Assembly: GCA_036986095.1 (NCBI GenBank)
Contig: BTQX01000001.1
Location: forward strand, 1 to 52,459
DNA from: Gammaproteobacteria bacterium
GTDB lineage: Bacteria; Pseudomonadota; Gammaproteobacteria; BMS3Bbin11
Reading direction: 5' to 3'
DNA: 52,459 nucleotides
Position numbers and translations under genes: made by a program. The notes below the pieces were generated by a model. It saw only the letters and a list, made by a program, of their open reading frames with translations. It searched no databases and was not told the DNA's origin. Of the stretch, positions 40,825 through 51,226 are shown in pieces. How positions within the stretch are numbered: position 1 is the first letter of the stretch; every line of letters begins with the position of its first letter.

Positions 40825-41050
40825 AGAGCCTCCTAAGCTGTTGAAATAGTATGATTTTTTAGATAATGTTACGAAGCAAAAAATCACAAACTGATAGTGC
40901 TTGCAAATCAGTATGCATTGATTGCACAATAAAGAATGTCGCCTGCACGACAAACAAACTTATCGCTGTATAAATAATTGTAATAATGGTTCAGAATACA
41001 ATAATAAACTTATAAGGAACCTCTATTTTTTAAGATACGGAAAGTCAAAA

Positions 41051-41788
41051 ATGAAACTAAACGACTCGCCATTACTGTCTCATGAGGATATAGCGCGTAT
41101 TAGTGCAATTACCAGCAGCATGTACAAAAAAGGTGCCTTTGTATTCCAGGCCGGCACGCCTGGAAAAAATATTTATTTATTGAATAAAGGACGCATAAAA
41201 CTGTACCGGCTTTCACCTACCGGCAAGGAAATTACACAGTGGTTTTGCTTCCCAGGTGAAGTATTTGGCCTGGCAGAACTGCCATCAAATAAACAGCGTT
41301 CTATTTATGCGCAGTGTTGCGAAAATTGCGAGGTAACAACAATCCCGCTAAATCAATTTAAGAATCTTCTCGCAACTTCTCCTGAAATCGCCATACAAGT
41401 TATTGAACAACTATCATTACGACTAAAGATTGTCGGCAATACATTACTCAATGTGACGGCTGATGACTCCCGTTCACGCATAATCAAGCTATTAATACGA
41501 CTTAGTAAACGTTTTGGTGTTGAGTGTAATAACGGGATCTTGATTGATGTTGTGCTTACACATAAAGAACTGGCTGACATGGTTGGTACATGTCGACAAA
41601 CGGTAACAACAATGATCGGTGATTTAAAACGTGATGGGTATATAGAGTATGTCAATCACCTGATTGTAATTCACTCCATGTCAGCATTTGAAGCCCTGAC
41701 TATACCGGGACAAACTAATGCACCCATAGTTAATAAAGGACCCGTCCAGTACACCAACCCGGGGTCAGATAGGGGTCTTAACATATAA
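41051..41788 (+). CDS. Crp-family cyclic-nucleotide-binding transcriptional regulator
   Basis: I trimmed the start to the ATG at 41051. It has a cNMP-binding beta-roll (GEVFGLAEL....QRSIYAQC, with the phosphate-binding RS pair) and a C-terminal HTH (HKELADMVGTCRQTVTTMIGDLKRDGYI). There is no FNR-type N-terminal Cys cluster. The last codons run into a GGGGTCAGA REP-like sequence. Confidence 0.8.
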   Translation: MKLNDSPLLSHEDIARISAITSSMYKKGAFVFQAGTPGKNIYLLNKGRIKLYRLSPTGKEITQWFCFPGEVFGLAELPSNKQRSIYAQCCENCEVTTIPLNQFKNLLATSPEIAIQVIEQLSLRLKIVGNTLLNVTADDSRSRIIKLLIRLSKRFGVECNNGILIDVVLTHKELADMVGTCRQTVTTMIGDLKRDGYIEYVNHLIVIHSMSAFEALTIPGQTNAPIVNKGPVQYTNPGSDRGLNI

Positions 41789-41917
41789 AGTACATTACTA
41801 AAGTAGGAAACCATGTCTATTTAACGAAATGCCCACAACGGATTAAACACAAATACCTACAAAAAAGTCCGTAAAAATCTCAACAAGGCCGCATCGTATA
41901 TTACAGGTTAGGTTTTA

Positions 41918-42631
41918 ATGATTAAACAACCACTACTTCTGATTTTTCCCGTTTTAACCCTTGCCCTACTGATTCCTGTGTCAGCAGTTTTCTCCCAGCC
42001 GGTGCTGGCTGAAAATTTTACCCTGCAAGGTAGTTTGAAAATATATAAGAAAGGAGGGAAGAAGACACTAAGGCGTTTTGACAACGCGTTGGTCTATTTG
42101 GAAGGAATTTCGGCCTCAGTTCCCGAACAGCTAGCCGAAGTTGATCAACGCAAGAAGAAATTTAATCCAAGATTGTTGCCCGTCGTTCAAGGCCAGGTAG
42201 TGCGTTTTTATAATTGGGATAAGGTGGAGCATAACGTATTCAGTACTGAAGAAAAAAATAGCTTTGATCTTGGTAGATACCCAAAAGCGGACTTCCGTGA
42301 CCGGCCCTATATGGATCCGGGTTTGTACAAAATATACTGCAATATACACAAGGCGATGATTCTTGATATCCTGGTTGTTCCCAGCCGATATTATGCCGTG
42401 ACAGATAAAAAAGGTGAGTATCAGATTAAAAATGTACCTGCTGGCGAGTATACCTTGAAGGCATGGCATATATATGGCGGTTCGGCCGAGCTTCCGATAG
42501 CAGTAAAGCAGGACACAAATTTTGAAGAGATAATATTGAATAGTACCCGAGTAGTTCACGATATAAAGAATCATATGAATAAATTTGGAAAAAAATATAA
42601 AAATTCAGGCAGCCGTTATCGCGGAAAATAA
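41918..42631 (+). CDS. Secreted cupredoxin-like protein with a type-1-copper-like ligand set plus a CarboxypepD_reg-like domain
   Basis: The 237-aa product has a signal peptide. The candidate ligands are His in VEHNVFS and C-x2-H-x2-M in YCNIHKAM, which is amicyanin-type spacing. The C-terminal segment TDKKGEYQIKNVPAGEYTLKAW is typical of carboxypeptidase-regulatory-like beta-sandwiches. Confidence 0.6.
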   Translation: MIKQPLLLIFPVLTLALLIPVSAVFSQPVLAENFTLQGSLKIYKKGGKKTLRRFDNALVYLEGISASVPEQLAEVDQRKKKFNPRLLPVVQGQVVRFYNWDKVEHNVFSTEEKNSFDLGRYPKADFRDRPYMDPGLYKIYCNIHKAMILDILVVPSRYYAVTDKKGEYQIKNVPAGEYTLKAWHIYGGSAELPIAVKQDTNFEEIILNSTRVVHDIKNHMNKFGKKYKNSGSRYRGK

Positions 42632-42633
42632 AC

Positions 42634-44598
42634 ATGTTGTTCTCCTTCCGCTACAAATTGTCGTTAATAATTTTTTTGGTAGCCTTGTTGATACTTTTCA
42701 TGGCTTTTTTTGCGATTGAAAACGTTCTTGAAAAAGAATTTCGTCTGGTAATTGAACAGCGCCTGCAACAAGCACAGGATGTTGTTAATCAACTTATGGA
42801 AGATCGATTTGATCGTTTGTTAATTCAGGCAGTAACCGTAGCAGACAATAAATTAACCCAGGATATACTTACTGATAAAAACCTTAGTACGGTAACGCGG
42901 GATGACATAGCTCGCGACGAAATACTGCCAACTTTACAAGCCGACTCTATGTTGATTACTGATGGCGATGGTAAGTTACTGGCAGAAACCTTCGAGCATG
43001 ACCCTCTCTGGGGAAAATTAAAAACGCAGCCGGCTTTTGAAGACGGTATAGCTGGTGAAGAAGTAGCGGGTATCATTTTCTTTGAAGGTACATTATTACA
43101 GTGGCTATTGTTGCCAGTCTATATTGATCATTTGATGTTTGGCACGGTAATTCTGGTTAGTACTTTGGGGGCGCAGGAATTACAGACGATTAGTCAGCTG
43201 ACCGGCACAGAATTATTAATTTCCTCCGACAATGAATTCCTTGCAACAGGCTGGCAAAAGCAGAAGGCTGCCAGGAGTGTGCATAGCCCATCATCCAAAG
43301 ATCAGCTTAGCTTTAGTGATTTGGAAAAAAATACTCAAGCAGGTCTTTATAAAGGCCAGTCTACAACCGAGGTAAATCTGCTTGGTGAACGTTATTTATT
43401 GCGTTTCAACGTGCCGAAAAATGCATTTACTCCCACCTATGTGGTCGCTCAGTCACTGGATCGCGCGCTGGCTTTTGTTGAAACGATCAAACAGGTGATG
43501 CTAATTATTGGTTTGATTGCTTTGATCATCGCCGGAGGTTTAGGGTTTGTAATTGCTTGTACTGTGTCGAGACCAATACGACTATTAAGTAAAGCCAACC
43601 GTGCAGTTGCGAAGGAGGATTTTAGCCAACGAGTGGATATACAGACCCGGGATGAATTTCATGAACTGGGTGAGTCATTTAATCATATGACTGAGTCGCT
43701 GGCGGAGAAAGCGAAAATACGTCTGGCGCTGGACAAGACCGTATCCAGAGAAGTGGCAGATCATCTGATGAAGCAGGGGGTGCAGCTGGGAGGAGAGAGC
43801 CGCGAGGTGACTATTTTATTTGCAGATATAAACGATTTCACATCATTGAGTGAGCGCTTATCAGAACAACAGTTATTAAACCTTTTAAACTCATATTTCA
43901 CACGTATTAATTCCTGCATACCGCAGTATCACGGGACTATAGACAAATATATCGGCGATGCTGTCATGGTATTGTTTGGAGCTCCGGTAAATGATGCGCT
44001 GCATGCTCTCCATGCAATTCAGGCTGCTCACGCAATATGGAATACGGTGCGGAAGTTTAATGAAGAAGTCAGCGAACAATTTGGGTGTAAGCTTGATATC
44101 GGTATCGGCATTAACAGTGGACAGGTATTGTCCGGTTTGATGGGTTCGGAAGACCGAATGAGCTATACGGTGCTGGGTGATCACGTCAATATTGCTTCTC
44201 GTGTGGAAGGTTTAAGCAAGCTCTACGGTGCGCGCATAATTGTCACTGATGAAACCAGGAAATTGGCTATACAGCAGGCTGGTCGGGATTATACCTACGT
44301 GTATCGTCGTCTTGATAATGTTCAGGTAAAGGGAAAAACTGTAGGCATCAATATTTACCAACCTATATATGAAAGAGATGAGGTAGATAAAAAACTGCAA
44401 GCTTATAATAGGGCATATGATTTTATCCTGAAGCACGAATTCAGGAAGGCGATGGCTGAATTTGAAAATTACATAAATTCGTGGCCACATGACAAAGTAG
44501 TGAATCTATGGTTTGAGCGCTGTAAATTGTATGCAGAGAAAATAGAAGCATTTGAACTGGATTACCGTGATGGAGTGCGGATTCTAAATACAAAATAA
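42634..44598 (+). CDS. Membrane sensor class III adenylate cyclase (periplasmic domain, TM, HAMP, cyclase)
   Basis: The 654-aa product has two TM segments flanking a roughly 270-aa periplasmic domain. It has a HAMP domain (SRPIRLLSKANRAVAKEDFSQRV) and a cyclase core (VTILFADINDFTSLSE, GTIDKYIGDAVMVLFGAP with the adenine-specifying Lys, and YTVLGDHVNIASRVEG). Its start codon lies 2 nt after the cupredoxin stop. Confidence 0.85.
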   Translation: MLFSFRYKLSLIIFLVALLILFMAFFAIENVLEKEFRLVIEQRLQQAQDVVNQLMEDRFDRLLIQAVTVADNKLTQDILTDKNLSTVTRDDIARDEILPTLQADSMLITDGDGKLLAETFEHDPLWGKLKTQPAFEDGIAGEEVAGIIFFEGTLLQWLLLPVYIDHLMFGTVILVSTLGAQELQTISQLTGTELLISSDNEFLATGWQKQKAARSVHSPSSKDQLSFSDLEKNTQAGLYKGQSTTEVNLLGERYLLRFNVPKNAFTPTYVVAQSLDRALAFVETIKQVMLIIGLIALIIAGGLGFVIACTVSRPIRLLSKANRAVAKEDFSQRVDIQTRDEFHELGESFNHMTESLAEKAKIRLALDKTVSREVADHLMKQGVQLGGESREVTILFADINDFTSLSERLSEQQLLNLLNSYFTRINSCIPQYHGTIDKYIGDAVMVLFGAPVNDALHALHAIQAAHAIWNTVRKFNEEVSEQFGCKLDIGIGINSGQVLSGLMGSEDRMSYTVLGDHVNIASRVEGLSKLYGARIIVTDETRKLAIQQAGRDYTYVYRRLDNVQVKGKTVGINIYQPIYERDEVDKKLQAYNRAYDFILKHEFRKAMAEFENYINSWPHDKVVNLWFERCKLYAEKIEAFELDYRDGVRILNTK

Positions 44599-44616: not shown

Positions 44617-47154
44617 TCAATCAACATGGAAATGGCGTATTACTCTATCCATTGACTCTCGGTAAGCAGCAGGTAAATTGCGGTAGAGATTTTTTTCTGT
44701 TCTTTGTGAAATATTTGTACGGATAGAGCTAAGATAGCGATGGATCTTGGAATTAATGCGGGCATGAATTACCCTGTCCTGGCTTCCGGCAAGCCAGTTA
44801 ATTGCCTGATCAATGTCACAGTCATTATCTGCCAGAGCCAGCAGGCACAGGCCGCGCAGGTGATTGGAAAGAGTACGTGATTTATGGCTATAGCCAAGTT
44901 CGGCTTCAGCCGGCTTGATGCGAAAGGCATGCTTACGAAGTATTAGCAATTCTTGCGGCAGATCAGATGAGTCCACAGCAGCGCCATCCAACGGTCTTAG
45001 ATCAGCAGAAGCATTGCTAGCGGGACCAGTCCTGATTGGGGTTGCCACACTGGTATCTCTGGTGGTTGAAAGATAACCTGCACGTAGAATATTATCATCC
45101 TCCAGCATTGCCTTACCAATAGCCGAACGTATTTCCGATTTAAGCTCACGGGCATTTCCTGTCATATACTTTTTACGTGTAAGCAGGTTCATAGCACGGG
45201 GCGAGACGATGGAAACTTCATGCGACATTTCAATACTGAGCACTTTTGTGAAATGTTCAATCAGTATCGGAATATCTTCGATACGGTCACGTAACGGTGG
45301 CAGGTAGACCCTGGCGCCTAGCCGCGCAAGTACATCACTGCGTAATTCGCCTGAACTGATGAGGCTGACAGGGTCGCGATTGGTGGCAAGGATAAATTTG
45401 ATGTTGACGGTCATGCCAGGGCCGCTGCCTATGCCGGGTTCAAACGGGCGACCTTCGAGTGGATATAGCAGCAAATCCTGAACAGAGAGCGGCAGACGAT
45501 CAAAATCGTCCAGCACCAGTGTTCCACCATCGCATTCCTGTAGCAGGCCAGGGCTTCCTTCTTTAGCAACATTTGTCAGACCGTGGCCGATGCCAATTCC
45601 AAAAATTCTTCCCAAAGCGAATGCCGGGTCAGCGTGTTCAAACTGCGCACAGCTGATTGTTTTGTAGGAATTATCATGGTTAGGCCCAAGACGATGAATG
45701 GCCCATGCAATATCTGTTTTGCCTGTTCCAGATTCGCCGACAATCATTACGGGAGTCATATTATGTGCCGCAAGTACGGTTTGTTTAAAAATCTCTTCCC
45801 ATAAAGGGCTAGCTCCCAGCAGGCGCTCTCGGCGTATATCTGTAAGTTCAGGGTAGCGATGTTCCAGTCGAGTCAGTCCGGAAGTTGTGTTGCTATCGTT
45901 AGTGACCTCACCTGATTCCTGTTGGCGATAGTCATCCAGAGAGCTACGCAGTTCAGATATCTCACTGCTCAGGGTATGAATACGCACATCCCTGTTTTTT
46001 ACCATGTTGCGCTCTCTATCAAGTTGGGCTTCCAGCAAATGCAGGCGCCCTCGGATGATGCCGCGTATACCAAGCAGTTCGTGATTGAGGATAGACATAG
46101 TCAGTGCAAGAGGTATCAACGCAATAGGGCCGAACAACCAGCTGTAGCTCGGTACCAGCGGCGTACCAGTCATCAGTATGGGTAAATTCCACAATAAAAT
46201 GTGTACAAAGGCTACCACGATGAATGCGCCTACGATCCAGCGTGTTCTTGCACGTTGCACAGGGTTTGTACTGTGATGATAAGTGCTGGCCATGAAAAAG
46301 GTGATCAGTATGAGCAGGGCTGTGTTAAGTAACAGCCTGGGTTCATAAACCGCAATTATGCGCTGAAGATTGTCACCCTGACTTGTCATCATAACTAGAA
46401 ACGGGGTACCCAGCGAAATTACGTATATAGTAGTAACTAGCCAGGGGTAGCGCAGCACCAGGGAATGTCTCTCAGGAAAGACCAGGGCGATATGCAGCAA
46501 GCTTGCCATCGCAACCTGTAACGATAAGGCCTCGGTGAAGGCGTTGAAAATAAGGGATTCGAACGCAATCCCTCGAATAAGCGGCGACATAAATATTGGC
46601 CACTGGGGATCCAGGCTGGCAAGCCAGAGTATCGCGGCAGAGAAGCACACTCCAATCAGAAAGGCCGATGCATCGCGCGACCTGGCCAGAATGATTGATA
46701 TGATAAGTATGCTAAGAAATACCAGTAGACTGAATCTGGCCCAATTGTAGTTCCAGACTTCAGCGCCATTTAATGGGCGCGACGTGATTTCCAGCTTAAT
46801 GGGCATACCGTTGCGTAGAAATTCAAATCCTGCCGGTTGTTCGCGCCATTTGGAGCGTTCTGTTACATAGCGACTTCTGTTCTCCCGGTTCAGTTTCAGC
46901 CAGTCCTCAATTTTGCGATCGTCTATTGCCAATAAAGGATCGCCTACTCTGACGCCGGCCAGTTCAGCAGGGCTTGATGGGTAGACCTCATTAACCACAG
47001 CAGATTCGCCGCTTACCTGTGTACCAAAACCAATTATGTAGGTGTTTAGCGCAGCCGGTACACGTATGAACACCAGATAAATAAAGATTAACGCCAGCAG
47101 AACTGTTAGCGCAGAGGTTGTTGCGCGTTGATTAGCCAGCGAGCCAAATTTCAC
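44617..47154 (-). CDS. Membrane-embedded PDZ-domain AAA+ regulator related to sigma-54 enhancer-binding proteins, with a degenerate GAFTGA motif
   Basis: The 845-aa product uses a GTG start. In order it has a TM segment, a PDZ domain (VVNEVYPSSPAELAGVRVGDPLLAIDDRKI), about seven TM helices and a coiled coil. The AAA+ domain has Walker A (VGESGTGKT) and Walker B (GGTLVLDDFDRL), plus ILATNRD and PPLRDRIEDIP. The C-terminal region is helical. Confidence 0.7.
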   Translation of the reverse strand: MKFGSLANQRATTSALTVLLALIFIYLVFIRVPAALNTYIIGFGTQVSGESAVVNEVYPSSPAELAGVRVGDPLLAIDDRKIEDWLKLNRENRSRYVTERSKWREQPAGFEFLRNGMPIKLEITSRPLNGAEVWNYNWARFSLLVFLSILIISIILARSRDASAFLIGVCFSAAILWLASLDPQWPIFMSPLIRGIAFESLIFNAFTEALSLQVAMASLLHIALVFPERHSLVLRYPWLVTTIYVISLGTPFLVMMTSQGDNLQRIIAVYEPRLLLNTALLILITFFMASTYHHSTNPVQRARTRWIVGAFIVVAFVHILLWNLPILMTGTPLVPSYSWLFGPIALIPLALTMSILNHELLGIRGIIRGRLHLLEAQLDRERNMVKNRDVRIHTLSSEISELRSSLDDYRQQESGEVTNDSNTTSGLTRLEHRYPELTDIRRERLLGASPLWEEIFKQTVLAAHNMTPVMIVGESGTGKTDIAWAIHRLGPNHDNSYKTISCAQFEHADPAFALGRIFGIGIGHGLTNVAKEGSPGLLQECDGGTLVLDDFDRLPLSVQDLLLYPLEGRPFEPGIGSGPGMTVNIKFILATNRDPVSLISSGELRSDVLARLGARVYLPPLRDRIEDIPILIEHFTKVLSIEMSHEVSIVSPRAMNLLTRKKYMTGNARELKSEIRSAIGKAMLEDDNILRAGYLSTTRDTSVATPIRTGPASNASADLRPLDGAAVDSSDLPQELLILRKHAFRIKPAEAELGYSHKSRTLSNHLRGLCLLALADNDCDIDQAINWLAGSQDRVIHARINSKIHRYLSSIRTNISQRTEKNLYRNLPAAYRESMDRVIRHFHVD

Positions 47155-47273
47155 ACTTCACCACACATTTATTCTCACACATTCTGCACAATATTAAACA
47201 CATACTTCACACATAAACGCAAGCGTGTTTTTGTAAGTAATTGAAATATATAACAAAAAATATTCATATTTTA

Positions 47274-47290
47274 TTGGCACGTAAATTGGA
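47274..47290 (+). promoter_or_regulatory. Candidate sigma-54 (-24/-12) promoter TTGGCACGTAAATTGGA
   Basis: It matches YTGGCACG-N4-TTGCW except that the -12 GC is GG. It lies 68 bp upstream of the ATG at 47358, in the divergent intergenic region next to the AAA+ regulator gene. It is the only intergenic TGGCAC-N5-TTG match I found by eye. Confidence 0.4.
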
Positions 47291-47357: not shown

Positions 47358-47876
47358 ATGAAAGATTCAAGTTTACGTAAGAAGATGATAAAGGGGTTAA
47401 TAGTCAGTTATGTCTCTGTACTGGGGGTCGTCCCCAGCCTGGCAGGCGCAGATGGCTCTACTCAGATGCTCCAGTTTGAACTGACTTTTGGAAATAAGAA
47501 ACCGGTCAGCAACTTCTATATGTCTGTGCGACCTACTGGAATGGCGACAGTAGATGAAGCAGACACCGATACTCAGTCCATGATTCGAATGCCTGTATTT
47601 TCTACTGACAGATCCCGGGTGACGATGTTGAATCCGTTGCCAATGTTCTATGCCAATGAGGGTGGATCTTCAACAGAAGGTGATGGAGATCGCAGTACTG
47701 CGCAAAAAACAGGCAGTGTATTGGCCGGGGCCATTTTAGTAGTCGGATCTGTAGCAGCTATTGCCTGGGCAGCCGCTGAATTTAGTCATTCTTTTGATGA
47801 TATTTGTAATGAAGGATGTGTTGGCCCCATCGATATTCCAGATCTGTCCATATTAGATCCAAATACAGGTTCATGA
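47358..47876 (+). CDS. Small secreted protein with a C-proximal TM anchor, hypothetical
   Basis: The 172-aa product follows a strong SD (AGGAGG). It has the signal peptide ...VSVLGVVPSLAGA, an acidic Gly/Ser/Thr-rich linker and the TM segment GSVLAGAILVVGSVAAIAWAAA. The tail ends ...DLSILDPNTGS. Confidence 0.5.
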   Translation: MKDSSLRKKMIKGLIVSYVSVLGVVPSLAGADGSTQMLQFELTFGNKKPVSNFYMSVRPTGMATVDEADTDTQSMIRMPVFSTDRSRVTMLNPLPMFYANEGGSSTEGDGDRSTAQKTGSVLAGAILVVGSVAAIAWAAAEFSHSFDDICNEGCVGPIDIPDLSILDPNTGS

Positions 47877-47932
47877 GTGCACGCGCTTTACCAGCGCGGT
47901 CACTTTTCATTAAGTAAGCAAAGGAGATAACC

Positions 47933-48403
47933 ATGAAACTTAGCAACAGTAAGTTAAACAGCAATAAACCAGGTATACGGACACAAATCAGAAGCGTAGT
48001 CGTGTTATTGGGCACCCTTTCGCTGCTCGGCACAGGTGTTGCGTCCGCCGGGGGTTTTACACAAGTAAAGCCGTTCGAATATTCCACCAGCAACAGCGAA
48101 TCACTGACCAGTCTGTATGGACAGTGGGAGCCACTTGAAAGTCAGCAGAAAAGTATCTCGGAAACGCTTTCGAGCAACCCATTTGTTCCATCCCTGATTC
48201 CACATCTTAGTGCGAATAGCCAGACATCACTCAAGCTGCGCACATTTTCAATGCTGGATCCGAATGGATATTACCGCGTGTCTTCACTTGAGGATGGAAT
48301 TCCATCAGATGAGAAGGAGACAGCAACTTCATTCCTCGGGGTGGTGGTTTTAGTTGGATACCTGGCCTTCGAGGCGGCAATAACAATGAGAAGCAATAAA
48401 TAG
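47933..48403 (+). CDS. Small secreted protein with a C-terminal TM anchor and basic end, hypothetical
   Basis: The 156-aa product follows the SD GGAGA. It has the signal peptide ...LLGTGVASA, a Ser-rich body containing FSMLDPNG, and a C-terminal TM segment (SFLGVVVLVGYLAFEAAI) followed by TMRSNK. Confidence 0.5.
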   Translation: MKLSNSKLNSNKPGIRTQIRSVVVLLGTLSLLGTGVASAGGFTQVKPFEYSTSNSESLTSLYGQWEPLESQQKSISETLSSNPFVPSLIPHLSANSQTSLKLRTFSMLDPNGYYRVSSLEDGIPSDEKETATSFLGVVVLVGYLAFEAAITMRSNK

Positions 48404-48521
48404 CTCCTGATATCGGTATGTTCATCTTTTTAAGGCCAGACTCCCCCCATTGGGTTTGGGGGAATCTGGATAAGGAAAAAGTCCAGGCGGCAAGGTAAAA
48501 AACATTCAGAAGGAATCCAAA

Positions 48522-49592
48522 ATGAGTATGAAAAAAATAGAAAGATTCGCGGTGTTAACCATCATATCTTTGACGATTATGGGATGTTCCACACCGGCAA
48601 CCCGTACCACAGGAACCAGTGAGCAGGATGTCGATGCTGAAACACTCAAACAGCTCGAAATTCGACTGGCTACAGACCTTCGTGAACATGACCGGGTGAT
48701 GGCGGTAGCATATCCGCTATTGAAGTCTGCTGTTCCTATTTGTGATGACGATGCTATCCCATCAATCGGTTTAACGCCTTCTAATCTGTATACCCTCAGT
48801 AAGGATGTCAGACAGGTTGCTGTCAGATTGTATGATATAGATGATCAGCTGCAAGTAATGATTGTCCACCCAGGGTCGCCAGCCGATAAAGCAGGTTTGA
48901 TGCGTGGTGATAAGTTACTATCTCTTAACGAACAGCCTGTCATCACCGGGGAGGACGCGGCTAAGAAATGGTATGAGCAACTCAAAAAGGTCCTGGAAGT
49001 CAGTAACAGCTTAACGCTGACCATCAGCCGAAATGGTGAACAGTCTCAGCTTACTCTTAATGCTGAGAAAGTATGCGGATATTCAGTCGCTGAGACCTAT
49101 AGCGACACGGTAAATGCCTTTGCTGATGGAAAGAATATTGTGTTATCAGCAGGCATGCTGCGCTTTGCACAAAATGATAATGAGCTTGCACTGGTGATCT
49201 CCCACGAGATAGCACATAACGCCATGGACCATATGGAAGCAAAAAGATCTAATTATACTTCTGGGACATTACTTGATATTGCCGCAGCACTGGCAGGCGT
49301 TAATACAGGCGGGGCATTTGGTAGAATTGCAGCAGGAGTTTATTCGAAAGGTTTTGAATCTGAAGCTGACTATGTCGGCCTTTATATCATGGCGCTGGCC
49401 GATGTTCCAATTGAAGACGCACCTAAATTCTGGCGTCGAATGGCTGCTACTCATCCGGAGAGTGCAGGCAAAGGAGGTTTTCTTGCCTCCCACCCTGCAA
49501 CTTCGGAGCGATTTGTGGCACTGGAAAATACAATTGAAGAGATACATCAAAAGCAGGCCAGTGGCGTTCTTTTGACCCCAAACATGAAATAA
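48522..49592 (+). CDS. M48-family zinc metallopeptidase lipoprotein with an inserted PDZ domain
   Basis: The 356-aa product has a lipobox-like LTIMGC and a PDZ domain (VMIVHPGSPADKAGLMRGDKLLSLNEQPV). It has the HExxH motif in VISHEIAHNAMDH, a downstream E (FESEADYVGL) and the C-terminal SHPATSERF typical of LoiP/YcaL-like M48 enzymes. Confidence 0.75.
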   Translation: MSMKKIERFAVLTIISLTIMGCSTPATRTTGTSEQDVDAETLKQLEIRLATDLREHDRVMAVAYPLLKSAVPICDDDAIPSIGLTPSNLYTLSKDVRQVAVRLYDIDDQLQVMIVHPGSPADKAGLMRGDKLLSLNEQPVITGEDAAKKWYEQLKKVLEVSNSLTLTISRNGEQSQLTLNAEKVCGYSVAETYSDTVNAFADGKNIVLSAGMLRFAQNDNELALVISHEIAHNAMDHMEAKRSNYTSGTLLDIAAALAGVNTGGAFGRIAAGVYSKGFESEADYVGLYIMALADVPIEDAPKFWRRMAATHPESAGKGGFLASHPATSERFVALENTIEEIHQKQASGVLLTPNMK

Positions 49593-49606: not shown

Positions 49607-51226
49607 ATGGCTATCGAAGAACTGAAGTTCAAGATTGCTAACACATGCTCTGAGATGGATGCAATACATGGCTTGAATTATCGAACGTTTGTCGAAGAGA
49701 TTCCTCAACATCAGGACAATCCACAGCAGAAACTTATTGATAAATTTCATGACGAAAACACATACATTATCTGCATGAAGGGAAAAGACATTGCAGGTAT
49801 GCTGGCTCTTCGAGATTCGCGTCCTTTTTCTCTGGACGCAAAACTCGAAAATCTTGATTCCTATCTTCCTGCATACCGATCAATTTGTGAAATAAGACTT
49901 CTTGCCGTTGAAAAAAAGTATCGCAATACAGCGATATTTATCGGCTTGTTAAACAAAGCATTTGATTTTGCCATGCAGCAGGCATATGACCTATGTGTGA
50001 TATCTGGAACTACTCGACAGATAAAGCTCTATAAACACATTGGTCTAAAACAATTTGGCCCATTGGTAGGTACTGAGAATGCAAGATATCAACCTATGTA
50101 TATATCTATTAAAGATGCCATGGCATTTAGAGACAGGTCGCACGCAATGAATATAAACAGTAAGACTATGTCAACATTAATTAACTGTCTACCGGGGCCT
50201 GTATCACTATCAGAAGGTGTCGTTAGTGCATTTGTATCGGAGCCTGTGTCACATCGTAGTGAATGTTTTATTGAAAGGTTCAACGAGGTTCGAGAAAAAC
50301 TGTGTCACCTGACAAGTGCACGAAAGGTAAACATTATGACGGGTTCCGGCACACTCGCTAATGACGTTGTTGCAAGTCAGCTCTCATCGTTGAAAGGAAA
50401 AGGTTTAATACTTGTGAATGGTGAATTTGGGAACCGGCTTGTGGAGCATGCTTCTCGTGCTGGCTTAGTCTATGATCTCCTCCAGACACCTGGTGGTAAA
50501 AGCTATAAAAGAAATGAATTGGAAAAACAAATGCAAGAACAGGGCGCATACTCCTGGCTCTGGTGCGTTCATTGTGAGACATCAACGGGTGTTATTAATG
50601 ATGCTGGTTTACTCAAAGACGTTTGTCAAAGACATAAAATAAAATTGTGCCTCGATTGTATAAGTACTGTTGGTTCATGTGAGGTCGATCTGAATGATGT
50701 TTATCTTGCATCAGCGACTAGTGGAAAGGGTATCGGGTCGTTACCCGGCCTTGCCATGATCTTTTCCGATCATTGTGCTACATCATGTAATAAGCAATTA
50801 CCACGTTATTTTGATTTGTCTTTATATGAAGGAAACCAGGGCATTCCTTTCACAATTTCATCAAATGCTGTGTATGCACTGGAAGCTGCTCTGATACAGA
50901 CGAACTGGCCAGAACGATTCAGGCTGGTGGAGAATTTATCTCGTCAGCTATACTGTCAACTTGATCTACTAGGACTGCAAATTCTCGCTGATCCAGAACA
51001 TCGTGCTTTGCATGTAACAAGCATCCTATTGCCTGATGGAGTTTCATCACTGGAGTTTGGCGATTTTCTAGCTAGTCAGGGCATATTTCTCAGTTATCGG
51101 AGCCAGTATCTTATCAGTCAGAACTGTGTGCAGATCTGTTTTATGGGCAATCTTCTGTTAGATTACAAGAATCTCTATGAGGCTTTACAACATGCTCTTG
51201 TACAAATAAGAAAAAGTGCTGCATAA
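49607..51226 (+). CDS. Fusion protein: an N-acyltransferase-like GNAT domain joined to a class V (PhnW/AGXT-like) PLP aminotransferase
   Basis: The 539-aa product has an N-terminal region of about 175 aa resembling N-acyl amino acid synthase/OlsB-type GNATs (LNYRTFVEEI...EIRLLAVEKKYRN). The C-terminal region of about 360 aa has the class V pattern (PGPVSLSE, GSGTLANDVV, HCETSTGVIND, and the PLP Lys in ASATSGKGIGSLPGLA). Confidence 0.65.
   Translation: MAIEELKFKIANTCSEMDAIHGLNYRTFVEEIPQHQDNPQQKLIDKFHDENTYIICMKGKDIAGMLALRDSRPFSLDAKLENLDSYLPAYRSICEIRLLAVEKKYRNTAIFIGLLNKAFDFAMQQAYDLCVISGTTRQIKLYKHIGLKQFGPLVGTENARYQPMYISIKDAMAFRDRSHAMNINSKTMSTLINCLPGPVSLSEGVVSAFVSEPVSHRSECFIERFNEVREKLCHLTSARKVNIMTGSGTLANDVVASQLSSLKGKGLILVNGEFGNRLVEHASRAGLVYDLLQTPGGKSYKRNELEKQMQEQGAYSWLWCVHCETSTGVINDAGLLKDVCQRHKIKLCLDCISTVGSCEVDLNDVYLASATSGKGIGSLPGLAMIFSDHCATSCNKQLPRYFDLSLYEGNQGIPFTISSNAVYALEAALIQTNWPERFRLVENLSRQLYCQLDLLGLQILADPEHRALHVTSILLPDGVSSLEFGDFLASQGIFLSYRSQYLISQNCVQICFMGNLLLDYKNLYEALQHALVQIRKSAA

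Follow-up and report, generated by a model that had tools for sequence, protein, structure and literature searches.

A membrane-integral NtrC-type regulator with a periplasmic PDZ domain and a non-GAFTGA L1 loop, encoded beside a sigma-54-type promoter

Bacterial enhancer-binding proteins (bEBPs) of the NtrC family, such as NtrC1, ZraR, PspF and DctD, are soluble proteins which receive their input from receiver, GAF, PAS or V4R domains and carry a GAFTGA motif and a Walker B motif of the DE type. A further group of NtrC-type AAA+ proteins lacks the canonical contact motif. It includes Rhodobacter capsulatus NtrC, Caulobacter NtrC, NtrX, VpsR and TyrR, in which the L1 loop is deleted or shortened and the promoters are of the sigma-70 type (bioRxiv 10.1101/2023.06.06.543975). 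The regulator considered here is encoded in a stretch of gammaproteobacterial DNA of 52,459 nucleotides (nt), contig BTQX01000001.1, which in its full length is called the window. In contrast to the first group, it is predicted to be an integral membrane protein with eight transmembrane (TM) helices; its input would be a periplasmic PDZ domain on a seven-TM (7TM) bundle, its L1 loop reads as a longer G-x-G-H-G-L-x-N, and its Walker B motif carries DD. Unlike the second group, it has an L1 loop that is lengthened and invariant, and a sigma-54-type promoter lies adjacent to its gene.

Comparative evidence suggests that the regulator most likely works like a bEBP. The reading favoured here, with confidence that is modest yet tips towards it, is that the protein is a membrane-tethered one-component regulator which would activate the adjacent operon in a sigma-54-dependent way, through a non-GAFTGA loop. 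An initial annotation of the window had already proposed a one-component transmembrane regulator of the bEBP type, and this proposal is upheld by the domain matches, the AlphaFold2 model, the membrane topology and the alignment of homologues. GAFTGA, a defining feature of bEBPs, was not found, and for this reason the protein is not called a confirmed bEBP. Architecture, topology, family conservation, the layout of promoter and boxes and the presence of the PDZ-7TM module on kinases as well are results obtained in silico. The functional steps discussed below, namely the ligand, DNA binding by the C-terminal domain, ring assembly, the sigma-54 contact and the direction of regulation, are inferred from sequence, models and comparative genomics.

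The AAA+ domain, the L1 loop and the divergent promoter region

The gene and the parts of its AAA+ domain that carry the argument are the following.

44617-47154 (-): whole gene, 845-amino-acid (aa) membrane-integral NtrC/bEBP-type regulator, from the list of open reading frames (ORFs), the translation and at least 37 full-length homologues
45070-45822 (-): AAA+ domain and lid of the sigma-54-activator type, residues 445-695, from PF00158, PF25601, PDB and Foldseek
45715-45738 (-): Walker A motif GESGTGKT, residues 473-480; G473, E474 and G476-T480 invariant, S475 in at least 90%
45565-45603 (-): L1 loop FGIGIGHGLTNVA, residues 518-530, from HMMER alignment to ZraR and from 37 proteins and 29 loci
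45499-45513 (-): Walker B motif LDDFD, residues 548-552; Asp in place of the catalytic Glu, invariant in the family

The ORF consists of 845 open codons and begins with GTG. The second codon ahead of this GTG is a stop, which makes it the first possible start, and the N-termini of the homologues share the same V-K-x-G beginning. A search of 5.8 billion proteins returned approximately 45 homologues; the full-length ones (n = 37) measure 809-873 aa, are 40-91% identical and have an identical Pfam architecture. Their sources are assemblies of JGI, ENA, NCBI and Logan, and the few that bear a name are labelled Gammaproteobacteria. A frameshift or fusion artefact is ruled out by the length and architecture of these homologues in independent assemblies, so that the frame stands as one gene, as the initial annotation had taken it to be. 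Conservation in the family alignment is likewise uninterrupted over the junction of the membrane part and the AAA+ domain, through NHELFGIRGIIRGR. The gene is an accessory one with a patchy distribution: none of the ten other genomes of the genus, most of which exceed 90% completeness, carries it, and it is found in one genome of a sister genus of the same family, at 66% identity.

The AAA+ domain is recognized by Pfam as Sigma54_activat (PF00158; residues 446-612, 95 bits against a cut-off of 20.2), followed by AAA_lid_14 (PF25601; residues 622-694, 39 bits). Among NCBIfam models the central part is nearest to PspF, NifA, AtoC, RtcR and NtrC, yet it stays far under every equivalog cut-off. 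Sequence matches in the PDB are ZraR, NtrC1 and PspF (E about 1e-27), and Foldseek gives TM-scores of 0.8-0.88 against the AAA+ domains of bEBPs. Sensor I (N592), the arginine finger (R611) and sensor II (R669) are invariant. As regards the Asp that replaces the catalytic Glu of Walker B, the E108D variant of PspF has been reported to match wild type in activation on duplex DNA (PMC4132715). The window's genome holds five further strong Sigma54_activat matches, three of them with a confirmed canonical loop; at least three of its other bEBPs read GAFTGA, GSFTGA or GAYTGA.

The L1 loop occupies the place of FGHEKGAFTGA in bEBPs and is two residues longer. In the HMMER alignment to ZraR, NtrC1 and PspF, RIFGIGIGHGLTNVAKEG faces ELFGHEKGAFTGADKRREG with two residues extra, and in the core of the loop RIFGIGIGHGLTNVA faces ELFGHEKGAFTGA, the aligned stretch being G-H-G-L-T-N-V-A. 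The initial annotation had described this loop as a degenerate GAFTGA in which only the Thr was kept. The absence of GAFTGA stands, and neither the HMMER alignment nor a motif scan of the protein places a canonical copy elsewhere. The degeneration and the retained Thr do not stand. Indeed, the loop is conserved across the family as G-x-[GSND]-H-G-L-x-N, with H524, G525, L526 and N528 showing little or no variation in 37 proteins and 29 loci, so that orthologues keep the same divergent loop, HGL-x-N. Conversely, the position of the supposed Thr is variable, being Pro in most members and otherwise A, T, S, N or H. The alignments thus portray L1 as replaced by a different conserved motif rather than decayed, and a loop which is lengthened and holds invariant residues indicates a conserved partner.

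The second line of evidence comes from the divergent region upstream of the gene, which measures 203 nt and contains the elements listed here.

47152-47212 (+): putative enhancer, or upstream activating sequence, with four same-strand CACAC boxes starting at 47152, 47162, 47176 and 47208
47234-47246 (+): site TAAGTAATTGAAA resembling that of integration host factor (IHF), between boxes and promoter
47274-47290 (+): sigma-54-type promoter TTGGCACGTAAATTGGA, within it TGGCACGTAAATTGG at 47275-47289

The first CACAC box overlaps the GTG start of the regulator. The promoter, which the initial annotation had noted as a sigma-54-like sequence next door, has a perfect -24 element, TGGCACG, and a -12 element of TTGG, not TTGC; it lies 67 nt ahead of the ATG of a 172-aa ORF. 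Homologous loci were gathered by exact-protein look-ups, a genome scan and a metagenome scan seeded with the loop region; a contig profile search with the whole-protein alignment was dominated by generic Walker A matches and contained four true family loci. The motif YTGGCAYG-N4-TTG-N, pointing at the divergent gene, is present in 17 non-redundant loci out of 22 for which upstream sequence was available. Because these loci share ancestry, counts over them overstate their independence.

At the C position of the -12 element, A is the commonest base of these 17 loci (9), with C and G in 3 each and T in 2. A Salmonella list based on chromatin immunoprecipitation has a base other than C in 4 of 29 intergenic sigma-54 sites, two of which are pspA and pspG (PMC3844500). 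The difference between 14 of 17 and 4 of 29 gives p = 6e-6 in Fisher's exact test, a value which is indicative only, the loci being related. The same statistic in the window's own metagenome-assembled genome (MAG) yielded 62 loose matches, 8 of them with a plausible downstream gene, and these are too few and too noisy. The L1 loop was not seen to covary with the -12 base, HGL-x-N being constant with TTGC, TTGA, TTGG and TTGT.

Upstream of the -24 element each locus has 3-6 CACAC boxes, with an extended consensus of T-CACAC-n-T-T-T. The 200 nt upstream of -24 in the 17 loci, 3,394 nt in all, hold 72 copies, a 28-fold enrichment over the 0.00075 per nt of the remaining locus sequence; they are strongly strand-biased (72 on one strand and 3 on the other). 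The boxes range from 55 to 125 nt upstream of -24, with two outliers near -180, and their offsets are mostly conserved, near -122, -110, -99 and -55 to -77. The usual distance of a bEBP enhancer is about 70-150 bp (PMC3844500). With a relaxed IHF pattern, 8 of the 17 loci have a site 30-43 nt ahead of the -24 element, where shuffled sequences would give 0.26; with the strict consensus the count is 4 of 17 and the expectation 0.2. No second cluster of CACAC boxes was found in the window's genome, and a cluster unique in the genome fits a local regulator. Taken together, boxes, bend site and -24/-12 promoter read as the textbook layout of a bEBP-controlled promoter, which appears to travel with the regulator while the downstream genes change. 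The initial annotation had doubted whether the protein contacts sigma-54 at all; with the promoter and the CACAC arrays at 17 loci, this doubt seems largely answered in favour of sigma-54.

The candidate reader of the boxes is the C-terminal domain, which is separated from the AAA+ domain by a linker.

44965-45060 (-): disordered, poorly conserved linker, residues 699-730; predicted local distance difference test (pLDDT) 28-33, variable and gapped columns
44620-44964 (-): conserved helical C-terminal domain, residues 731-845, putatively DNA-binding; ELGYSHKSRTLSNHLRGLC, with the Fis-like stretch LALADNDCDIDQAINWLAG...ARINSKIHRY

The family pattern of this domain is ELG-x-SHKS[RK]TLS-x-HLRG-x-C, then AL-x-x-NDWD-x-x-x-AA-x-x-L ... 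K-M-x-R-Y, and an additional conserved stretch of about 55 residues follows the region that resembles a helix-turn-helix (HTH). The C-terminal domain of the window protein has no Pfam match, and its matches against PDB sequences are at chance level alone. An hhalign comparison with the HTH_8 tails of ten canonical bEBPs aligned the whole HTH with a four-residue insertion (P = 0.003, probability 10.7%). The domain likely binds DNA, to judge from these sequence comparisons and from the boxes, the conserved boxes being the stronger argument.

The membrane part and the PDZ-7TM block

The domain order of the initial annotation, that is TM1, PDZ, about seven TM helices, a coiled coil, the AAA+ domain and a helical C-terminus, is borne out by Pfam, AlphaFold2 and hydropathy. 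The N-terminal half comprises the following parts.

47047-47121 (-): TM1, approximately residues 12-36, predicted to run from inside to outside; hydropathy 2.56 at 18-36, mean count of Lys plus Arg (K+R) 2.4 in the N-tail, AlphaFold2 helix 9-36
46768-47046 (-): PDZ domain placed in the periplasm, residues 37-129, from Pfam, Foldseek and positive-inside counts
46075-46767 (-): seven-helix membrane bundle, residues 130-360; AlphaFold2 helices with pLDDT 80-95, alignment
45916-46065 (-): long helix or coiled coil, residues 364-413, leading from TM8 to the AAA+ domain; AlphaFold2

AlphaFold2 was run with the 37-sequence alignment and gave a mean pLDDT of 81 for the full protein; residues 1-372 alone reached 86.5 with a predicted TM-score of 0.83. 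In the model TM1 (9-36) is followed by a PDZ fold (43-123), seven TM helices (130-360), a helix (364-413) and the AAA+ domain, after which come the disordered segment 699-730 and the helical C-terminal domain 734-844. The hydropathy profile has eight peaks, which match the eight predicted helices. Averaged over the 37 members, K+R counts are 2.1-4.1 in the N-tail, in loops 2-3, 4-5 and 6-7 and in the stretch after TM8, and 0.2-1.1 in loops 3-4, 5-6 and 7-8. By the positive-inside rule, this alternation of loop charge places the PDZ domain in the periplasm and the N-terminus and AAA+ domain in the cytoplasm; the periplasmic location given in the initial annotation is thereby kept, and a cytoplasmic one is ruled out.

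The PDZ domain (residues 41-122) exceeds the Pfam cut-offs of PDZ_6 (30.5 bits), PDZ_2 (30.0 bits) and PDZ (23.4 bits), and it is modelled with a pLDDT of about 90. Its best Foldseek matches are the PDZ domains of DegS, HtrA, DegQ, AlgW, CtpA and CtpB (E about 1e-3), periplasmic proteases which recognise peptides by their C-termini. The carboxylate-binding-loop pattern, x-hydrophobic-G-hydrophobic, is found in IIGF at residues 40-43, where G42 is invariant, and these residues are likely the carboxylate-binding loop of the domain.

The 7TM bundle contains invariant polar or aromatic positions, namely H221, F226-P227, R305-W306, W322-N323-P325 and H358. It has no Pfam match, and HisKA_7TM (PF16927) gave none in the window protein at E <= 1. 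Foldseek returned only weak matches resembling G-protein-coupled receptors, with high root-mean-square deviation and no solved homologue among them. When 1.84 billion representative proteins were searched with a profile of the 7TM block, 790 clusters matched, 136 of them at E <= 1e-10, and the top 17 or so of the 790 are the family with bEBP output. By this search, homology to the 7TM part of many kinases is clear. Twenty other clusters were scanned, and a recognisable output was present in 13. In these the 7TM block begins near residue 115-215, with one exception, and the outputs are GAF-HisKA_3-HATPase_c, GAF-PAS-HisKA-HATPase_c (in some with a receiver, i.e., hybrid kinases) and GAF-SpoIIE (PP2C) phosphatases. 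PDZ_2 matches occur in two of the scanned 7TM-block kinases or phosphatases, and the N-termini that were read show TM1 and a PDZ-like ectodomain. The relatives carrying the TM1-PDZ-7TM block, which corresponds to 46075-47121 of the window (residues 12-360), are proteins P0080-P0211; one homologous kinase, P0181, gives a sub-threshold HisKA_7TM match (19.7 bits against a cut-off of 28.6), the sole such relative. The recurrence of the block on histidine kinases and PP2C phosphatases, the outputs to which most of the clusters are fused, identifies it as a sensor input, and PDZ-7TM appears, by sequence comparison, to be a widespread and apparently unnamed input module for which Pfam has no model.

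The helix that leads from TM8 into the coiled coil (364-413) is probably a signalling and dimerisation helix, as judged from the model. The best Foldseek match of the whole model is NtrC1 as the inactive, linker-held dimer (1ny5), over 275-297 columns, which is more than the AAA+ domain alone.

Divergent and neighbouring genes

The genes that face the promoter, and that would be its targets, are listed below.

47358-49592 (+): likely target genes, divergent from the regulator, from ORFs and Pfam
47358-47876 (+): 172-aa secreted, C-terminally anchored protein
47933-48403 (+): 156-aa secreted, C-terminally anchored protein
48522-49592 (+): lipoprotein-like PDZ-M48 metallopeptidase with an HEIAH motif, from Pfam

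The small secreted proteins fall into two families, each with a hydrophobic helix close to the C-terminus and, in some members, Cys-rich tails; neither has a Pfam match. A terminator-like G+C hairpin at 47882-47898 (+), directly after the 172-aa ORF, may limit read-through to the genes downstream. The PDZ-M48 peptidase also follows small proteins in the closest relatives, L092 and L095, and homologues of the small proteins or of PDZ-M48 are the first divergent genes in L010, L092, L094, L095, L099, L108 and L109. A second PDZ protein in the putative regulon is a hint of a shared ligand or substrate. Across the loci the divergent genes encode tripartite ATP-independent periplasmic (TRAP) transporters, an FAD-oxidase-like protein, or small anchored proteins accompanied by either a PDZ-M48 peptidase or a GDSL lipase. 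Promoter and boxes stand before a TRAP operon (DctP-TAtT-DctQM) in L093, L103 and L106 and before the FAD-oxidase-like gene, a label taken from sequence and not from a profile, in L096, L097 and L114. The same layout of promoter and boxes ahead of differing genes implies that the regulator family is not tied to one physiological output.

Further downstream on the plus strand, a single ORF (49607-51226) fuses an N-acyltransferase of the FeeM/GNAT type to a class V aminotransferase, and a GT2-like gene after it runs off the window. On the other side of the regulator, the co-directional genes at 40922-44598 (+) encode a Crp-like regulator, a secreted cupredoxin/CarboxypepD_reg-like protein and a CHASE4-like-HAMP class III nucleotide cyclase. 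This row is convergent with the regulator and ends 18 nt from its stop codon; cyclase genes are located within a few kilobases of the regulator in L091 and L093 as well.

Proposed mechanism, alternatives and known systems

The favoured reading may be put as a sequence of steps. The PDZ domain, held at the membrane by TM1 and the seven-helix bundle, would sense a periplasmic ligand, which by analogy with the PDZ domains of DegS, AlgW and Ctp would most likely be an exposed C-terminal peptide. The signal would pass through the 7TM bundle and then along the TM8-coiled-coil helix. In the off-state this helix may hold the AAA+ domains as a non-ring dimer, like the linker of NtrC1 and DctD, and activation would consist in the assembly of an AAA+ ring at the membrane. 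The Fis-like C-terminal domains would bind the direct CACAC-n-TTT array which starts at the regulator's own start codon, and a bend at the IHF-like site would carry the ring over the roughly 100 nt to RNA polymerase-sigma-54 bound at TGGCACG-N4-TTGG. ATP hydrolysis would then lead to the open complex via a re-invented L1 loop, HGL-x-N, and not via GAFTGA. The divergent operon that would be switched on comprises the small anchored envelope proteins and the PDZ-M48 peptidase, and in relatives the TRAP transporters or the FAD-oxidase-like gene. As a statement on the family as a whole, it is plausible, though held with more doubt than belief, that these proteins activate sigma-54 RNA polymerase without GAFTGA by means of a longer H-G-L-x-N tip, a membrane-tethered ring and promoters which mostly lack the C at -12 (14 of 17) and are maybe easier to unlock.

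A number of observations weigh against sigma-54 activation by this protein. To our knowledge, there is no precedent for a hexamer with 48 TM helices that reaches RNA polymerase. The motif G[AS][FYW][TS]G[AG] occurs nowhere in the 845-aa protein, whereas a regulon survey treated GAFTGA as invariant in sigma-54-specific enhancer-binding proteins and used it as a filter (PMC12316311). The T86A variant of PspF has been found unable to engage the closed complex (PMC4132715). Natural L1 variants in Desulfovibrio all keep G-A/S-F (PMC4641369), and natural variants linked to sigma-54 regulons keep G-A/S-F/Y, where the aligned residues of the present family are G-L-[PAT]; the known natural bEBPs without GAFTGA all act at sigma-70 promoters (bioRxiv 10.1101/2023.06.06.543975). 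The first Arg of FRxD is Gln in several members, and the Sigma54_activat score of 95-99 bits lies far under the 177-247 of the five strongest matches in the same genome. HTH_8 is detected in 5 of 24 relatives at 13.5-20.8 bits, below the cut-off of 22, and on the second conserved stretch. A recognisable promoter is missing from 5 of the 22 loci, two of which (L013 and L014) also lack the boxes. Lastly, rpoN, whose presence in the host had been left as a point to be checked by the initial annotation, was not found in the window's MAG (244 contigs, 72% complete), whereas it is present in all ten genomes of the same genus and in all six searchable carrier genomes.

Some of these points are shared with the alternative that the protein is a membrane-tethered DNA-binding regulator which does not remodel sigma-54, the contact having been lost as in TyrR, NtrX, VpsR and the NtrC of Rhodobacter and Caulobacter. 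Such a protein might repress or anti-activate the adjacent sigma-54 promoter, regulate itself or activate at a sigma-70-type promoter, the sigma-54 promoter then being fired by another bEBP or by none. The missing GAFTGA, the sigma-70 promoters of the characterised GAFTGA-less bEBPs, the low Sigma54_activat score of the family and the non-consensus -12 element of most promoters agree with it, and a CACAC box over the regulator's own start codon suits autorepression. However, the known sigma-70-acting cases have deleted or shortened L1, whereas this family has it lengthened and invariant, together with a largely conserved set of ATPase motifs. The boxes lie at enhancer distance and not over the promoter; the sigma-54 promoter accompanies the regulator across loci with completely different targets, as would a cognate pair of activator and promoter, and no second bEBP gene is conserved in the neighbourhoods. 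The loss of sigma-54 remodelling is regarded as unlikely, yet as the main rival it deserves appreciable weight.

Two other explanations are held to be less likely. The membrane form might be a precursor from which proteolysis near the end of TM8 frees a soluble activator made of coiled coil, AAA+ and DNA-binding domains, comparable to release by site-2 proteases. This would remove the steric problem of a 48-helix hexamer and follow the classic logic of envelope stress, in which PDZ-dependent proteolytic cascades operate (DegS/RseP), and AlphaFold2 shows a low-confidence hinge at residues 359-365, directly after TM8. On the other hand, few parts of the protein are as conserved as the hinge, NHELFGIRGIIRGR, and in the N-terminal model TM8 continues unbroken to residue 371, although there is a break at 361-363 in the full-length model; such a pattern is typical of a helix that transmits a signal rather than of a linker that is cleaved. 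The PDZ-7TM module also serves histidine kinases and phosphatases without a need for release, and no protease is conserved at the loci; there is but a slight chance that release of this kind takes place. The chance seems slighter still that the AAA+ domain acts as a motor at the membrane which remodels or unfolds a substrate outside transcription, such as envelope or membrane proteins that the PDZ domain would sense, with the C-terminal domain as an adaptor and with promoter and boxes belonging to another regulator. Membrane-anchored AAA+ hexamers exist, FtsH being an example, the new L1 tip could grip another substrate, and envelope proteins and a PDZ-M48 peptidase are encoded nearby; the C-terminal domain, moreover, falls under the Pfam HTH_8 cut-off and is without a sequence relative in the PDB. 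Against such a motor, the CACAC boxes are kept with the family over 40-90% protein identity while the targets vary, and they begin at the regulator's start codon. The C-terminal domain aligns to a whole Fis-type HTH (P = 0.003), the nearest relatives by sequence and by fold are all transcription activators, and the loci have no further DNA-binding regulator in common.

If the family does activate sigma-54 RNA polymerase without GAFTGA, this motif would be a common and not an obligatory solution. A family that combines sigma-54-type promoters with a different conserved loop offers a natural experiment on what the GAFTGA loop must do, and it raises the mechanical question of how a ring with 48 TM helices reaches a promoter. 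The polytopic membrane bEBP would also be a new coupling of the envelope to sigma-54, a one-polypeptide alternative to a kinase with an NtrC-type regulator and to PspA/PspF, and would lead from a periplasmic PDZ sensor to sigma-54 directly, with no phosphorelay. From a practical point of view, the family offers a simple transcriptional read-out for finding the ligand of PDZ-7TM, and its compact layout of boxes, IHF-like site and -24/-12 promoter could find use as an orthogonal sigma-54 part. The literature searched contains no account of a bEBP that is integral to the membrane or linked to a PDZ domain, although an older mention may exist. Term searches of a census of transmembrane regulators (PMC10269533) gave no mention of sigma-54, NtrC or PDZ; the census relies on Pfam DNA-binding matches and would for that reason miss this family.

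Compared with known systems, the regulator is closest to the NtrC-family bEBPs. It shares with them the AAA+ clade, Walker A, sensor I, arginine finger, sensor II and lid, an L1 insertion, a helical linker ahead of the AAA+ domain and a C-terminal domain which is Fis-type-like at a sub-threshold level, and also the -24/-12 promoter beside the gene, the repeated boxes upstream and the IHF-like site. The differences beyond those of input, membrane and loop lie in the C-terminal domain, where HTH_8 remains under the Pfam threshold and about 55 conserved residues are added after the HTH-like region. ToxR, CadC and TcpP likewise unite sensor, membrane anchor and DNA-binding output in one polypeptide that works from the membrane. 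They have an N-terminal OmpR-like winged helix, one TM helix, a C-terminal periplasmic domain, no ATPase and sigma-70 promoters, whereas the present protein has the reverse order, a polytopic anchor and an AAA+ motor as its output, and gives no match to Trans_reg_C; the resemblance to the ToxR/CadC class holds only in the general sense of signalling at the membrane.

The input half has its relatives in the PDZ-7TM kinases and PP2C phosphatases, which carry TM1-PDZ-7TM at the same position, with H-x-x-L-V-F-P, R-W-[IV] and a last helix ending L-F-[GD]-I. Their outputs are GAF-HisKA_3/HATPase_c, PAS-HisKA-HATPase_c-REC and GAF-SpoIIE, and a bEBP output is seen in about 17 of the 790 clusters; the module as a whole is perhaps distantly related to Pfam HisKA_7TM (PF16927). 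With DegS/RseP and AlgW the regulator has in common a periplasmic PDZ domain of the HtrA/Ctp type, which could read exposed C-termini, and a putative output which includes envelope proteins and a peptidase. With the PspF system it has in common promoters without C at -12, the psp promoters reading TTGT in pspA and pspG (PMC3844500), like most promoters of the family. Unlike these systems, the regulator is without a protease domain and without an anti-sigma factor. Its signal would need no intermediary, sensor and sigma-54 activator being one polypeptide, whereas sigma-E is reached via proteolysis and PspF is controlled via the binding of PspA.

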